A stretch of 64,000 nucleotides of DNA from a virus: IMG/VR virus record IMGVR_UViG_3300050821_007764, positions 1 to 64,000 of that record; one strand, given 5' to 3'. Below, piece by piece: positions 19,669-32,618 of the stretch. The number at the start of each line of letters is the position of its first letter. The stretch's first letter is position 1. A model generated the notes under the pieces. That model was not told the DNA's origin. It searched no databases and saw only the letters and a program-made list of their open reading frames with translations. Position numbers and translations under genes: made by a program.

Positions 19669-19886
19669 CCGATCTCCGCTGCGACGTGATGCAGGCTGCG
19701 GGAATGGGCCATGACTTCCTGCGCTGCATCAACGAGGGCACTCATGAGTATGTGTGGGAGGGTTGCCCGTGCAAGGATAAAGATCCTGACGTGTGCTTCG
19801 AAGGCGGCTGGGGTTCCTCGTGGGAATGCGACGGCACGCACGTCTTCGGGGAGTGGAATGAGAAGGAAGGCCATGCAGGAAGCTGA
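19665..19886 (+). CDS. small Cys-rich protein
   Basis: ATGA overlap. Confidence 0.55.
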   Translation: MTDLRCDVMQAAGMGHDFLRCINEGTHEYVWEGCPCKDKDPDVCFEGGWGSSWECDGTHVFGEWNEKEGHAGS

Positions 19887-20328
19887 ACTATTCGACCTTG
19901 ATGGTACGCTGGTGGACAACACCATCATCAGGAGATTCGAGCCGCAATTGCTCGCTGTGGACTACCGGGATGTCTATCAGGAAAAAGTGACGTACTGTCC
20001 GCCGAATCTCGAAGTAGCAGCAGCATTCCGAGTATGTCAGCAGGCAGGTCGGGCGGCTTTGGTTCCGACAGCGCGACAGCGGAAGTTTCAGGACTGGACC
20101 GAAGAATGGCTCGCTAAGTGGGAACTGGTCCCGGACGGTCTGTGGATGCGGAACACGGGTGACCCGCAATCGGATGTGTCCTTGAAGGAGGGTTTCCTGA
20201 CGGAGATCCTCTCAGAATATACGGTGGTCCGGTCCTGGGAGGACAACCCGCACGTGGCAAAGATGTACGCCGACCGTGGAATTCCGACAGAGCTTATTCC
20301 CGGGTACGTAGAGGAAAAGGAAGCATGA
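19873..20328 (+). CDS. HAD-family phosphatase (polynucleotide kinase/phosphatase phosphatase-domain like)
   Basis: FDLDGTL, TAR, WEDNP motifs. Confidence 0.85.
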   Translation: MQEAELFDLDGTLVDNTIIRRFEPQLLAVDYRDVYQEKVTYCPPNLEVAAAFRVCQQAGRAALVPTARQRKFQDWTEEWLAKWELVPDGLWMRNTGDPQSDVSLKEGFLTEILSEYTVVRSWEDNPHVAKMYADRGIPTELIPGYVEEKEA

Positions 20329-21566
20329 AGTCACTGAAATCCAAGCCCATCGAGCTGCCTGACATCCCCTGGAAAATGACCCGGGGAGAGAAGAAGCGGC
20401 ACCGCGAACTGGGCAAGCAAATCGGTAGTCCTTTCGTGAGGACCGTTCGGCTTCACCACAGGCTCCAGGAGTACCGGGAAAGCGCGTGGTTCGAGACTGT
20501 CCACGCTTTCGAGGCCAACCCTGGCGACTTCTACAACGCCTGGCACTACCTCAACAACCACCCCGTCTTCTGGACCTTCGGCGAACCCCGCGACGGCACA
20601 GTCCCCGAGGTCCACGAACGGAACCTCCAGCACGAGTACGGGATGCTCTTCGGGAACGGCATCGAGGTCACCGTGCACCGGGTGGACCCGAAGACCCGCA
20701 GTGTCTCCGACGACCCCGCGCGGAACACCCGTACCGAGGTCTGGTACGAGCTGTCCCTCACCCACTGGCCCACCCATGAGCACTACCCGCACCGCATTCA
20801 CGACTACGAGGGCGACGGCGGCGCGAAGACCTACGAGAAGGCCATCGTCAAAGCCGCCCGGAAGGTCCACGAGCTGTACGGCAACGACCGACGGATCCTG
20901 GATGCCCAGCTGAACAAGGAGCCGGAGCCGGAGAACGCCTGCCACTGTCCCGCGCACCAGAAGTCCCGTGAGACCCTGATCGAGGCAGCTCCGGGCTGGA
21001 CCGGCTGCCAGGAGTGCTACTCCTTCGGGTGCAACGCCGCCGTGTGCAACTGCGCCTGCCACCCGAAGGAGGAACAGGCAAAGACTGAGCCGACCCTCGC
21101 CGAGGCGCTGGCGGAGCTGGGACCGAGCCAGGTGCTCCCGGTGGCCGAGCTGGCCAAGACCGTCGGCTGCGGACGACCGAGCCTCACGCAGATCACTGTG
21201 GAGACCCGCAGGCCCGGCAAGTGGCGCTTCGTGGACACCGAGACCCAGCAGGTCTGGCGCTGGCGGGACGGCGCGTTCGAGCTCGTGGACCCGATCGCGG
21301 ACACCCAGGAGCTGACGGATGCCGACCTGCTGGCCGACCCGGAGCTCCAGGAGTCCATCGCGCAGTGTCAGCACGGCGAGACCGTCCCCGCCACCACCCT
21401 GGCCGAGGAGGAAGCGGACTGGCAGGCACGGGCCGAGAAGGCTGAGGCGTCCCTCGCGAGGGTCAGGGGCCTGCTCCCGGAGTTCAGGGGCCGGTCCGGA
21501 TACGCGCCGACGTACAGCGTGGCGCTAGGCTTGATCGAGGCAGCCCTCGCCCAGGAGACCTCATGA
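20325..21566 (+). CDS. hypothetical multidomain protein
   Basis: 413 aa, RBS, strong codon bias, Cys cluster. Confidence 0.8.
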   Translation: MKSLKSKPIELPDIPWKMTRGEKKRHRELGKQIGSPFVRTVRLHHRLQEYRESAWFETVHAFEANPGDFYNAWHYLNNHPVFWTFGEPRDGTVPEVHERNLQHEYGMLFGNGIEVTVHRVDPKTRSVSDDPARNTRTEVWYELSLTHWPTHEHYPHRIHDYEGDGGAKTYEKAIVKAARKVHELYGNDRRILDAQLNKEPEPENACHCPAHQKSRETLIEAAPGWTGCQECYSFGCNAAVCNCACHPKEEQAKTEPTLAEALAELGPSQVLPVAELAKTVGCGRPSLTQITVETRRPGKWRFVDTETQQVWRWRDGAFELVDPIADTQELTDADLLADPELQESIAQCQHGETVPATTLAEEEADWQARAEKAEASLARVRGLLPEFRGRSGYAPTYSVALGLIEAALAQETS

Positions 21567-21961
21567 CCGATGACCCCCGCCCGACCTTCGCCGAGGTCCA
21601 TGCCCGGCGCGGCTACACCTTCGGGGCGTTCTTCCCTCCCGAGGCCCCGTGGGAGGTCGTGGAGGCCGCGTTCGACTGGTTCGCCGATGCCTTCATGCTT
21701 CAGGGGGACGAGGGCGGCGGCTGGGACACGTTCGTGGTTGGTCTGGCCGGTGACCAGCTCAGCATCGACATGGATCTGCCCAGAGGCACGCACATCTACC
21801 TGTCCACGAGCTGCCTGCACGGGGACCACGAGCACTGCAATGCCATGGTCGGCGTCAACGGATCCAAGCGGCCCGGCCGGTGCAAGTTCTGCGACGAGGT
21901 CTGCCGCTGCCCGGTCTGCCGCCATGACATGCCACCACGTGCTGACTGCACCCATGGGTAA
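21563..21961 (+). CDS. Cys/His-rich hypothetical protein
   Basis: HIYLSTSCLHGDHEHC..CKFC..CRCPVC. Confidence 0.7.
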   Translation: MTDDPRPTFAEVHARRGYTFGAFFPPEAPWEVVEAAFDWFADAFMLQGDEGGGWDTFVVGLAGDQLSIDMDLPRGTHIYLSTSCLHGDHEHCNAMVGVNGSKRPGRCKFCDEVCRCPVCRHDMPPRADCTHG

Positions 21962-21977
21962 TCCGGCCCACAGCCCA

Positions 21978-22151
21978 ATGGATCGCATGATGACACCTGT
22001 CAGCACCGAGGCCGGTTCGACGGCCGCCAGCAACCGCCCGTCCCTGACTGAGCTGTGCCAGCGGGCGCGGGCCGAGGCCACCGTCACCCGGGTCCTGTCC
22101 GGTGACAGCGGCGGCCGGGACGGGGTCAGTGCTTTTCAGTCCTCGATTTGA
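21978..22151 (+). CDS. FxSxx-COOH RiPP (cyclophane) precursor-like peptide
   Basis: 57 aa ending ..RPSLTEL..VTRVL..GVSAFQSSI-stop; no clear RBS. Confidence 0.6.
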   Translation: MDRMMTPVSTEAGSTAASNRPSLTELCQRARAEATVTRVLSGDSGGRDGVSAFQSSI

Positions 22152-22285
22152 TCATGGATGTGCAGCTGCTCCCCGGTCTTTTCCCGGCTGGGGAGCTTCT
22201 GCGTTCCCTTGCCCAACCGTTTGAGATGTGATACGGTCGGGCCAGGAAACCAGGAACACCGACCTGTACCGAGGAAGAAGGAATC

Positions 22286-22495
22286 ATGTCCGGACACGAC
22301 TGGAGATCACAGCAACGCCTGGCAACACGCATTGGGCGACTGGGCGGCTACCAGGTGAAGCAGACCAGCAAGGGTCACCTGCTCATCACCAATCTGCTGA
22401 CCAACGAGCGCGGCATGGTCACGTGCAGCAAGTCCGACCATCGTTCGCCGAAGAACAATGCCGCCGAGCTCAAGCGCCTCGGCATCGAGCTGTAG
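22286..22495 (+). CDS. HicA-like small protein
   Basis: GYQVKQTSKGHLLI..SDHRSPKNNAAELKRLG. Confidence 0.55.
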   Translation: MSGHDWRSQQRLATRIGRLGGYQVKQTSKGHLLITNLLTNERGMVTCSKSDHRSPKNNAAELKRLGIEL

Positions 22496-22530
22496 AACTC
22501 AGGACCCGGACCAGGAAAGCAGGAAAAGGA

Positions 22531-22839
22531 ATGCCACGGAGCATGGCCCCCGCAGAGCTCATTCACCAGCTCTACGAGATGTGCGGGCACACAGTCAACA
22601 CCATCGGCAGTGCTGTCCCCCGCAGGCTGGCGCTGGCCCTGGACGAGTACCGGGGGCGCAGTGAGCTGCTGGACGAGCGGATGGCCCGGTTCGACGCGGC
22701 CCGGCAGGCGCTTGAAGGGCGCAGGATGCGCGGCTACCTGGGACGGGCGGAGTGGGAGGAGCTTGTCGCCAGCGCGCCGCCGGTTGCGCTAGCCCTGCGG
22801 CCCCTGGTCCCCGCGTCGGCTTCGAGGGTGGACGCCTGA
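22531..22839 (+). CDS. hypothetical protein
   Basis: CAGGAA leader, RBS. Confidence 0.7.
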   Translation: MPRSMAPAELIHQLYEMCGHTVNTIGSAVPRRLALALDEYRGRSELLDERMARFDAARQALEGRRMRGYLGRAEWEELVASAPPVALALRPLVPASASRVDA

Positions 22840-23033
22840 TGCTGACGATTCTTGAGGTCTTCGGCGGCCTGGAGGCGGCACTGCTCATCCTGAGTGCCGC
22901 ATGGTTCTACCGGGCACAGGGGATGGAGATATTCGCCTGGATGGCCGTCACCTTCTACGGTACGGCGTTTCTGGCAGGAGCCTTCCTGCTCACCGTCGTG
23001 ATTCACGACCATGTTCATCTGAACCTGCGGTAG
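22839..23033 (+). CDS. small membrane protein
   Basis: TGATG coupling, two TM segments. Confidence 0.65.
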   Translation: MLTILEVFGGLEAALLILSAAWFYRAQGMEIFAWMAVTFYGTAFLAGAFLLTVVIHDHVHLNLR

Positions 23034-23119
23034 GAAGCCCAAGGGGACCGGTTGACACCGGTCCCCTTGGTGTGTCAGTATTAAAACACAAGGAACGAGG
23101 AACCCAGGAAGAAGGCATC

Positions 23120-23659
23120 ATGTCCGAGAGTCTTGAGAGCAGGCTCGTAAACGCCGTCCGGACCCGGCGCGGCATCAGTCCCAAGGCCGCCACATCCCAC
23201 GTCCACAAGAACCTGGTCAAGCACCCGAGGCAGCGGGGCTGGGAGCCCTGGCAGGGCTACGGCCTCGACTCGCTGGAGGACTTCACCGGCATGGTCAAGG
23301 CGTGGCTCGGGGACAAGTCCAACCTCTCCGGCGCGACCCTGGACGCCGCCAACTACGGCGAACTGCTGGAGCACTTCCGCGAGATGGCTGGCTGGAAGCC
23401 GCCGCGCAAGAAGGCCGCCAAGCCGAAGGCGGCGAAGAAGGACTACGCCGGATTGCGGGGGCTCCTCCAGCTCGATACAGGACCGGAGCCCAAGCCGCAG
23501 CGCGGTACTGTCGCCGCCGCTGCCAAGCGTGTCCCCCGCGTCGTCACCGCCCGCATCGTCCCCGGCAACTGGCGCTACATGGCCGACCACGCCGACACCG
23601 CCTCCGCCCGCGCCTGGTGGTCCGAGTACTGCGACAAGCGCATGCGCGGTGAGGTCTGA
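23120..23659 (+). CDS. hypothetical protein
   Basis: promoter TTGACA at about 23051, RBS. Confidence 0.75.
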   Translation: MSESLESRLVNAVRTRRGISPKAATSHVHKNLVKHPRQRGWEPWQGYGLDSLEDFTGMVKAWLGDKSNLSGATLDAANYGELLEHFREMAGWKPPRKKAAKPKAAKKDYAGLRGLLQLDTGPEPKPQRGTVAAAAKRVPRVVTARIVPGNWRYMADHADTASARAWWSEYCDKRMRGEV

Positions 23660-23970
23660 TGACGTACGACCTCGTTCGGCAGGACTTCATCGACGCGTAC
23701 GCCCAGAAGTGGGGCTGCACGCCGGAGTACGCCGAGGGCATGCTCCGGCACGTCGAGCTCACGGCGATCGAGAAGGCCCAGGAGTGGCAGGAGGGCGACT
23801 GGGAGTTTCGGCTCTCCCCTGACGGCCGGGACTTCGCGTTCTTCGACCAGGGCAACGGCCCCTGGTTCATCCCCCGGCCCGCCATGACCGGACGGTTTGT
23901 CAGCAGTGTGCAGATGGACGCCATGGGCTGGACGAGGTTCGTCAAGGCCCAGGATGCGGACACGGAGTGA
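23659..23970 (+). CDS. hypothetical protein
   Basis: TGATG coupling. Confidence 0.7.
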   Translation: MTYDLVRQDFIDAYAQKWGCTPEYAEGMLRHVELTAIEKAQEWQEGDWEFRLSPDGRDFAFFDQGNGPWFIPRPAMTGRFVSSVQMDAMGWTRFVKAQDADTE

Positions 23971-24206
23971 AAGGCTTCCACTGCATCCGGCACGACGCCG
24001 TGGCCGACGCCTGCCGGAAGCAGCCCGGGACGTGGATCCACGTCGGCACCTACAGTACGAAGACCTCCGCACAGGCCACCGCCCGCAGGATCGGCGAAGG
24101 TGCTGTCTACAAGGCGTACCGCCCCGCCGGAACCTTCGAGGGCCGGTCCGAGATGAGCGACCTCGGCTACACCGTCTACGCCCGGTACACCAGGGGGAAG
24201 CCGTGA
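23967..24206 (+). CDS. hypothetical protein
   Basis: GTGA overlap; VYARY terminal motif. Confidence 0.7.
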   Translation: MKGFHCIRHDAVADACRKQPGTWIHVGTYSTKTSAQATARRIGEGAVYKAYRPAGTFEGRSEMSDLGYTVYARYTRGKP

Positions 24207-31046: not shown

Positions 31047-32618
31047 ATGACCGACAGCCACACCCCCCAGGCAGCCGTCGAGAACGACGACATCATGCAG
31101 GAGATGGCCCGTCTCGCCGAGGCCGCCACCGCCAACGGCCTCGCAACCCAGGCCAACGGGGTCTCCCCGCAGCTCGCCTCGGCAGCCGCCACCCTCGCCC
31201 TGCTCAGCGCACTGGGCGGCAACAAGGTCGCGGAGGACAGCCTCCACTTCGAGGGCACCTCCTTCATCCTGCCGAAAAACTACGAGGGCCGCATCGACGA
31301 CGCCATCGAGTTCCTGGTGCAGTACCGGTCCCAGCAGGCCGCCAAGGTCGACATCACCCGAGTCTTCGAGTACCGCCCCCTGGACGTCGCCCACGCCGTG
31401 CAGGCCGCTCTCAAGAAGGTCTTCGGCCACACCGGCAAGGGCATCGCCATCAAGACGATGTTCGGCGACATCGAGCCCCTCTTCGTGGACGTGCCGACCG
31501 GCGTGGACCAGGTCACCCAGGTCCCCTGGAACCGCGTCGCGTTCCCGTCCCTGAACGGGCACATCGACATCAAGTCCAAGGACTCCCCGCAGGGCCCCGT
31601 CGGACAGATCACCGTCAACGCCCCCCGCGCCTACCGCAGCGCCGTCGACGGCTTCTTCAAGGCGGTCGAGGCCGAGCTGCGTGGCGGCTCCATCTACCGG
31701 GGCAAGGCCATCGTCCAGACCGAGGCCGACGAGATCAAGTTCATGGACCTGTCCAAGGTCAAGCGCGAGGACGTCGTCTACGGCGACGAGGTCTTCGCGC
31801 ACCTGGAGGCCAACCTCTGGGTGGCCCTGCGCAACCTGCCCGCCATGCGAGCAGCCGGGCAGCCCATCAAGCGGGCCGTCCTGCTGGAGGGCCCGTACGG
31901 CACCGGCAAGTCCCTCGCGGGCTACCTCACCGCGCAGCAGGCCGTCGCCAACGGCGTCACGTTCATCTTCGCCGAGCCGGGTGCTGACCTGCACCTGGCC
32001 CTGAACACCGCCCAGCTGTACGCCCCCGCCGTCGTTTTCTTCGAGGACATCGACGTCCTTCAGTCCAACGACCCCGAGGACGTTTCCAAGCTCCTGGACG
32101 CGTTCGACGGCGTCGGCGGCAAGGGCAAGGAGGTCATCGCGGTCCTGACCACCAACAACCGCGACAAGATCCACAAGGGCATGCTGCGGCCCGGCCGCCT
32201 GGACGCCGTCATCCACATCGCCGACCTGGACCTCGGCGGTATGCAGCGACTGATCGAGGCGTCGTTCCGGGGCAGCGACGTCAAGCTCCTGGACATCGAC
32301 TACGAGGCCGTGTTCGAGGCGTGCGAGGGCTACCTGCCCGCGTTCGTCCGCGAGGTCGCCACCCGCGCCCTGCGGTACGCCATGGTCCGCGTGAACGGCA
32401 TGCCGAACGAGCTGACCACCGACGACCTCCTCAAGGCCGCACACGGCCTGCGGGAGCAGTACAGCCTCATGATCGGCGCGCACGAGATCCAGCAGACGGC
32501 GACGCTGGAGGCCGCGCTGCACAACGTCATCGCGGAAACCCTGGAGAAGGCCGTCGCCCTGGACGCCGACGGGGACCAGAACTACAACATCCGTGGGTTC
32601 GAGATCGCCCGCAAGTAG
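31047..32618 (+). CDS. AAA+ ATPase
   Basis: Walker A GPYGTGKS, Walker B VVFFEDID, TTNN, LRPGRLD. Confidence 0.9.
   Translation: MTDSHTPQAAVENDDIMQEMARLAEAATANGLATQANGVSPQLASAAATLALLSALGGNKVAEDSLHFEGTSFILPKNYEGRIDDAIEFLVQYRSQQAAKVDITRVFEYRPLDVAHAVQAALKKVFGHTGKGIAIKTMFGDIEPLFVDVPTGVDQVTQVPWNRVAFPSLNGHIDIKSKDSPQGPVGQITVNAPRAYRSAVDGFFKAVEAELRGGSIYRGKAIVQTEADEIKFMDLSKVKREDVVYGDEVFAHLEANLWVALRNLPAMRAAGQPIKRAVLLEGPYGTGKSLAGYLTAQQAVANGVTFIFAEPGADLHLALNTAQLYAPAVVFFEDIDVLQSNDPEDVSKLLDAFDGVGGKGKEVIAVLTTNNRDKIHKGMLRPGRLDAVIHIADLDLGGMQRLIEASFRGSDVKLLDIDYEAVFEACEGYLPAFVREVATRALRYAMVRVNGMPNELTTDDLLKAAHGLREQYSLMIGAHEIQQTATLEAALHNVIAETLEKAVALDADGDQNYNIRGFEIARK

Follow-up and report, generated by a model that had tools for sequence, protein, structure and literature searches.

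An orphan FxsA-like precursor peptide encoded by a tailed phage, a possible decoy for a host Fxs pathway

FxsB, a radical SAM/SPASM enzyme, forms a three-residue cyclophane between a Phe and a Ser of its small ribosomal precursor, the FxsA or FxSxx-COOH peptide, a chemistry reflected in the NCBIfam family names. In the accessible text of Kaur et al. (2020, PMC7159879) the FxSxx peptides are tied to a radical SAM-SPASM enzyme, a supposed metallopeptidase and a TIR-AP-ATPase with TPRs, which together belong to the VMAP-ternary conflict systems. The precursor is described there as small and rapidly diverging with a conserved C-terminal peptide, and the processed product is proposed to be a toxin or an amplifying signal. 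The family of the supposed metallopeptidase now bears the NCBIfam name aKG-HExxH beta-hydroxylase. Throughout the accessible text the peptide lies within a cellular locus and a viral copy lacking the enzymes is not described. Here we report such a copy from IMG/VR virus record IMGVR_UViG_3300050821_007764. It is an open reading frame (ORF) of 57 codons at 21978-22151 (+) in the window, by which we mean the whole stretch of 64,000 nucleotides analysed, the first 64 kb of a linear record of 89,048 bp that CheckV rates as 86% complete. The encoded peptide is very likely, on sequence comparison, a divergent homologue of the FxsA precursor. We put at roughly one in two the probability that it acts on the Fxs pathway of the host as a substrate mimic or decoy. 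An earlier note on this DNA had drawn attention to the ORF, its place in an intergenic gap and its translation, and these were borne out exactly; the background that it sketched for FxSxx peptides (radical SAM/SPASM, TIR-AP-ATPase and TPR proteins) agrees with the accessible part of PMC7159879 and with the NCBIfam names of the genes that adjoin such peptides in bacteria.

The peptide has the build of an FxsA precursor. It is 53-57 amino acids (aa) long, depending on the start codon, and it ends in F53-Q-S55-S-I57 followed directly by TGA, giving it the small size and the terminal F-x-S-x-x of the family (TIGR04268, with FxsB as TIGR04269). Bacterial FxsA peptides of the same size range share with it the RPSLxEL and RxL(P/S)G motifs of the leader and the AF(Q/N)SSI-COOH end followed by a stop. 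Its parts are these:

21978..22151, + strand: FxsA-like peptide ORF of 57 codons plus TGA, recognised from the sequence, TIGR04268, our own hidden Markov model (HMM), hhalign, codon use and the homologue P0007
21990..22151, + strand: likely true frame from the third ATG, 53 aa beginning MTPVST..., identical to P0002; Kitasatospora FxsA starts MTPVTST...
22035..22055, + strand: leader motif R-P-S-L-T-E-L, residues 20-26, aligning to RPSL(A/T)(E/D)L of bacterial FxsA leaders
22089..22103, + strand: leader motif R-V-L-S-G, residues 38-42, matching bacterial R-A-L-P-G
22134..22148, + strand: C-terminal core F-Q-S-S-I, with F53-x-S55 as the predicted cyclophane motif and the stop at 22149-22151

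The earlier note had proposed a search with the FxSxx-COOH model, and the outcome was divided. TIGR04268 was the sole NCBIfam family that the peptide matched (E 3.5e-4, 20.8 bits, model positions 19-44 of 44, reaching the C-terminus), and the best six-frame match to that model across the 89,048-bp record was the peptide ORF itself (E 1.5e-4); the score falls below the curated cut-off of 28 bits. That cut-off is an unfair judge in this case because bacterial peptides that adjoin FxsB also fail it: L148 has no match, L143 scores 14.9 bits and L166 scores 21.5 bits. Just three of the ten actinomycete peptides that we tested passed it, and all four homologues of the phage peptide tested match the model too, with 16-19 bits.

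We obtained a more discriminating comparison from bacterial peptides collected by two pattern scans. The first used back-translated VAAFNSSI-stop on one genome per species and gave at least 120 stretches; among the 80 matches listed, 75 were from filamentous actinomycetes (mainly Kitasatospora, Micromonospora and Streptosporangium) and five were chance matches. The second, with V-x-AFQSSI-stop, gave 38 stretches, made up of 25 actinomycete FxsA-like peptides and 13 chance matches. The bacterial comparators are genuine FxsA peptides, as their FxsB and FxsC neighbours show. In L145, L069 and L148 the gene right after the peptide encodes an FxsB with a fused HExxH domain, and in L155 it encodes FxsC; among the matches listed, 92 of 100 bacterial loci have an FxsB-like ORF next to the peptide, downstream and on the same strand, as do 83 of the 87 listed loci where at least 1 kb of downstream sequence exists. 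An HMM built from 72 distinct bacterial FxsA sequences picked out the peptide ORF as its sole match among the 1,733 six-frame ORFs (E 5.4e-5), and the runner-up (E 0.48) stood 13 bits behind. When the phage trio of peptides was compared with the 72 bacterial FxsA sequences by hhalign, the probability was 97.6% (P 3.5e-12), and it was still 91% (P ~1e-6) when both sides were trimmed of their last eight residues and the leader was left to carry the comparison. The best leader-only pairwise score was equalled by two of 1000 shuffles, and a leader-only HMM from all 72 bacterial peptides ranked the peptide ORF first (E 0.011). The three top feature matches in ESM-Atlas were also FxSxx-COOH clusters, a lead only, for their score of 0.84 is within the range that shuffled proteins attain a third of the time.

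Homologues of the phage peptide are conserved through the final residue. When 1.84 billion representative proteins were searched exhaustively with phmmer, P0007 (50 aa, E 1.7e-4) emerged as a homologue that is 56% identical to the peptide and aligns with it to the last residue; P0008 (52 aa) belongs to the same cluster. Over the alignment with the peptide the two are 54% and 48% identical, respectively, and have the same C-terminal end. A related phage, G001, with an AAA-ATPase 60% identical to that of the present phage, has a 46-aa ORF (P0010) that ends VAAFNSSI and lies in an intergenic gap at a different genomic place; P0011 is an additional relative of P0010. All of the homologues, at 37-56% identity, terminate in AF(Q/N)SSI-stop, and five distinct peptides at that level of identity have retained the reading frame, the motifs of the leader and the C-terminus to the exact residue. 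In alignment A1 (four sequences) the invariant residues include R20, P21, L26, R38, G42, A52, F53, S55, S56 and I57. Conservation of the terminal FxSxx in related phages, to which the earlier note had tied its reading, stands wherever a homologue is present, G001 included, and fails in the sense that only one of five related records has such a peptide at all. Among the other phmmer matches, P0003-P0006 were set aside as compositional, being long and repetitive with many matching stretches. P0009 (596 aa, repeat-rich), listed in the 90% cluster of P0002, bears no likeness to the peptide, and its listing there is probably a clustering artefact. Pattern searches confirmed no further homologue with the peptide in genome contigs (600 matches), with alignment A1 in viral contigs (70 matches) or with alignment A2 in metagenome contigs (89 matches). 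Against cultured phages, tblastn with the peptide gave a single match, dismissed as meaningless (E 2), and tblastn with two canonical FxsA peptides gave none.

The phage peptide also departs from the canonical family in several respects. Its leader has a Cys at position 27 and is two residues shorter in its middle part, and its core is preceded by G-V-S where the bacterial peptides have V-(P/A)-V-A. The family of SjiA (NF040585) shows some likeness to P0007 (17.5 bits) and P0008 (21.8 bits) from residue 11 to the end and is matched by the FxsB-adjacent Streptacidiphilus peptide L148 (27.3 bits); in contrast, the window peptide has no match to it at E up to 10, and all of these scores are far under the 75-bit cut-off of that family. 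The most conspicuous difference is that the peptide is borne by a phage in whose record no FxsB, HExxH, FxsC or TPR/AP-ATPase gene was found. Since its TIGR04268 score is under the cut-off and no FxsB neighbourhood surrounds it, we class the peptide as a viral orphan variant rather than as a canonical fxs-locus member.

The earlier note was right that the window contains no FxsB gene, and the same goes for the record as a whole: TIGR04269 found no match anywhere in the 89 kb, the radical SAM family PF04055 found only a sub-threshold match of 11.7 bits, and no PqqD-family match in the record reached its cut-off. Neither the present record (G000) nor G001 has a match to TIGR04267 (HExxH) or to NF040588 (FxsC); in the case of FxsC the genome search was silent in the controls too, but hmmscan does score true FxsC. 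An enzyme-less copy is a sign of a non-host context because FxsB adjoins 92 of 100 bacterial copies. A survey of phages for other orphan copies had been suggested, and such copies exist. In two pattern scans of IMG/VR we found six further viral records (G001 and G011-G015) with an FxsA-like peptide, and FxsB is absent from all seven viral records that bear one, two of which are rated 100% complete. These other viral peptides are likewise small stand-alone genes in high-G+C DNA that end AAF(N/Q)SSI, and three of the six pass the TIGR04268 cut-off. They differ from the window peptide in that it forms a divergent branch of its own together with P0007 and P0008, and even in the related phage G001 the genomic position is not the same.

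Several lines of evidence agree that the ORF is a gene. Its G+C content at third codon positions (GC3) is 0.81 in frame, similar to that of neighbouring genes, and a codon log-odds score trained on 28 long genes of the same phage gives its frame +15.5 bits, with the other five frames all negative. Control windows of 57 codons had a mean of 27.7 (standard deviation 15.9) in frame and -45.2 off frame, and none of the 430 off-frame windows reached 15.5. A hairpin that resembles a terminator begins 5 nt past the stop; its folding energy is -32.9 kcal/mol (z -3.91), and none of 200 shuffles folds equally well. The 53-aa form that starts at 21990 is identical to P0002, which is recorded as a product of a second contig (95,929 bp). 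There is little doubt that this is a real gene, because codon use, the hairpin, the identical peptide of the second contig and the homologues conserved to their ends all point the same way. The start codon is probably the third ATG, at 21990, judging from P0002 and the Kitasatospora peptides. The ORF stands in an intergenic gap of 324 nt; the gene before it (132 aa, 21563-21961) has its stop 17 nt ahead of the first ATG of the ORF, the gene after it encodes 69 aa (22286-22495), and Pfam assigned no family to either of the two. The peptide gene, with the hairpin behind it, probably closes a small transcription unit that opens with a 413-aa gene and continues with the 132-aa gene, and we infer that it is expressed. 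A scan for sigma-70 and terminator consensus sequences listed nothing at the ORF; it passed over the hairpin because this has no 5-T tail. Contigs from runs X2 and X3 cover both flanks of the ORF but not 21940-22200, and none bridges that gap. The neighbouring features concerned are:

22156..22207, + strand: terminator-like hairpin with an 11-bp core stem at 22168-22196, beginning 5 nt past the stop
21563..21961, + strand: Cys/His-rich gene upstream (132 aa), without a known family, given as context; GC3 0.86

The 132-aa product is Cys/His-rich in its C-terminal half (STSCLHGDHEHC ... CKFCDEVCRCPVCRHD) and has no family in Pfam, PHROG or PADLOC. Partial relatives of it occur in two viral loci, L011 (54% identity over 39 aa) and L020 (34% over 59 aa). 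With the 413-aa gene, the 132-aa gene and the peptide as queries, no related locus was confirmed in viral contigs, and the genes recognised beside the peptide ORF include none for an exporter, a protease or a receptor.

The record is that of a tailed phage. It has replication genes (primase, family A DNA polymerase and helicase), virion genes (tape measure, minor tail protein and tail fibre) and 14 tRNA genes, and its overall G+C content is 63.6%. The carrier is probably a soil actinophage of lytic lifestyle; neither a tyrosine integrase nor a serine recombinase was found in the 86% of the genome represented by the record. Searches with the AAA-ATPase and the primase gave actinophages as the closest cultured relatives, at 25-40% protein identity, and a megablast search of cultured phages with 20000-24000 matched nothing. 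The AAA-ATPase (phrog_10440, 31047-32618) is the best marker for relatives of the phage: it is 60-62% identical in two viral contigs of ~108 kb and ~40% identical in Gordonia and Mycobacteroides phages. A HAD-type phosphatase at 19711-20328 resembles the PNKP phosphatase domain (PF25109, E 8.8e-12). A 608-aa protein of the virion region matched two of 401 genomes, from which no kinship bearing on the host emerged.

Within its lineage the peptide gene is accessory, because only one of five related records has such a peptide and has it at another place. The right flank of the locus, from the 252-aa to the 103-aa genes, is syntenic with the nearest relative, G002, and the left flank, which holds the peptide, is replaced there by other genes. 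In G002 a 398-aa multi-pass membrane protein (L005:1519-2715) is encoded in the variable stretch that in the present phage is taken up by the peptide and the 132-aa and 413-aa genes.

The nearest kin of the peptide give a hint of the host. Its best matches among 108 peptides, after P0007 and P0008, were the viral L190 and then ~19 bacterial peptides, all from Kitasatospora or from records labelled Streptomyces whose leaders are of the Kitasatospora type. Common to the phage peptide and the Kitasatospora type are RPSL(A/T)(E/D)L, R(A/V)L(P/S)G..G(R) and the start MTPV(T)ST. This resemblance is a hint that the host belongs within or close to Kitasatospora and the Streptomycetaceae, with the caveat that the method of fetching enriched the peptide set for Kitasatospora. 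The codons of the phage core end in A or T and the bacterial loci compared have a G+C content of 72-75%; this difference suggests that the gene has long been resident in phage DNA and is not a fresh capture.

These observations invite a reading in which the phage supplies a substrate and the cell supplies everything else. The peptide could act only via the Fxs machinery of the host because the phage is without Fxs enzymes of its own. It would be made early in infection from the accessory operon, and the radical SAM/SPASM enzyme FxsB of the host would bind it via the leader and perhaps close the ring at F53-x-S55. From there two routes may be envisaged. In one the phage peptide would compete with host FxsA for FxsB; in the other a look-alike product would be offered to the readers of the mature peptide, the TPR, AP-ATPase and TIR proteins. 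Either way, the predicted conflict system would be blunted or steered. What the sequences show is the gene, its conservation, its kinship with FxsA and the lack of partner enzymes; the host, FxsB as the binding partner and the sign of the effect are inferred.

Our even odds for this reading take account of a number of points that weigh against it. As to identity, the 20.8 bits lie under the curated TIGR04268 cut-off, a leader-only HMM made from the Kitasatospora-type subset alone does not rank the peptide ORF first, and the source of P0007 and P0008 may be either a phage or a bacterium. As to the gene, no clear Shine-Dalgarno sequence can be read ahead of the ATGs at 21978, 21987 or 21990, and absence of an FxsA-like peptide from four of the five related phage records makes it dispensable. 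As to the setting, a maturase may lie on the part of the genome missing from the 86% complete record; the searches with AAA-ATPase and primase did not settle the host, for they gave only distant relatives among actinophages; and many candidate hosts would be without an FxsB partner, as FxsB was found in 46 of the 401 sampled genomes of the class. Finally, anti-phage defence by Fxs loci is a published prediction only, on the accessible text of PMC7159879, and PADLOC v2.0.0 contains no Fxs models.

The alternative that survives best accepts the same identity, resting on TIGR04268, our own HMM and hhalign, and gives the peptide the opposite sign: an FxsA homologue that serves the phage or a lysogen, matured by host FxsB into an active cyclophane that works as an agonist or a toxin. 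It might set off the Fxs response in cells nearby or in superinfected ones, exclude rival phages or act as an antimicrobial against competitors. An intact AFQSSI core, identical to bacterial cores, is what one would expect of a peptide that is still modified and read, and such a role is in keeping with the accessible text of PMC7159879, which proposes that the product of processing serves as a toxin or amplifies a signal. Lysogenic conversion is, however, unsupported, given that no integrase or serine recombinase was found in the 86% complete record; nothing recognised next to the ORF would export, cleave or sense the product; and an agonist of the suicide type would harm a lytic phage in its own cell. 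We regard this alternative as unlikely.

An FxsA homologue could also be a mere passenger, a fragment of a captured host gene that drifts without a selected function. The site is a non-syntenic variable stretch, the peptide is missing from four of five related records, it has no Shine-Dalgarno sequence and its TIGR04268 score is sub-threshold, all as might be expected of such debris. Drift is nevertheless hard to square with five distinct peptides that retain the frame, the exact end and the leader motifs at 37-56% identity, with a codon use that is phage-like and core codons ending in A or T, which speak for long residence and not for recent capture, or with the recurrence of orphan copies in seven viral records, and we consider a passenger improbable. 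Least probable of all is that the ORF is foreign to the Fxs systems, being open by chance in G+C-rich DNA or coding for some other small protein with an F-x-S-x-x end and an Ala/Arg/Leu-rich leader whose likeness to FxsA is compositional; this view could appeal to the TIGR04268 score under the cut-off, to the long low-complexity proteins P0003-P0006 that phmmer also drew, to an ESM score within the reach of shuffled proteins and to the failed leader-only test with the Kitasatospora subset, but it would have to explain away a sole genome-wide match 13 bits ahead of the next, a leader-only profile comparison with P ~1e-6, a leader score seen in only two of 1000 shuffles, homologues conserved through the final residue and gene-like codon use in the peptide frame alone.

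The decoy reading, which we prefer, has parallels in phage biology. Phages make mimics and sponges that disarm immune signalling, and they make signalling peptides such as the arbitrium peptide AimP; the shared logic is that of a small phage product which copies or captures a signal of the host or of the community. The window peptide is unrelated to them in sequence, and they act on DNA-binding or nucleotide-signal steps or use a receptor of the phage itself, whereas the molecule imitated here would be a precursor peptide made by the ribosome and dependent on an enzyme of the host.

The bacterial loci examined for comparison also offered some observations of their own. The gene directly upstream of FxsA is pdxH (pyridoxamine 5'-phosphate oxidase) in all three loci with a named upstream ORF, L145, L148 and L155, which belong to Kitasatospora or Streptacidiphilus. 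In a Kitasatospora sp. (L155:1997-2179) an FxsA-like peptide with four leader Cys residues is followed by the TIR-like FxsC rather than by FxsB, and an FxsB gene sits elsewhere on the same contig. Kitasatospora aureofaciens (L069) has two FxsB paralogues, one of 794 aa with an HExxH extension and one of 401 aa without it, together with a stand-alone HExxH protein.

We found no publication on a phage-borne FxsA in full-text searches of the accessible literature. For annotation, the 28-bit cut-off of TIGR04268 misses many true relatives of FxsA, bacterial and viral, whose genes are left unannotated. Fxs loci are common in large actinomycete genomes and their biological role is only predicted, and a phage with nothing but the substrate is hard to explain unless the peptide meets a host Fxs system during infection. 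Because the phage carries the substrate without the enzymes, the proposed role of Fxs in conflict and the idea of a new viral means of interference with immunity, by imitation of a precursor, become directly testable. We suggest, tentatively and with more doubt than attaches to the decoy reading of this one peptide, that orphan FxsA look-alikes are a recurrent phage counter-measure with which phages that infect filamentous actinomycetes would jam an immune pathway based on a radical-SAM-stapled ribosomal peptide signal or toxin. If this is true, it would be the first instance of a virus imitating the precursor of a ribosomally synthesised and post-translationally modified peptide, and it would provide indirect genetic evidence that Fxs/VMAP loci are anti-phage systems.

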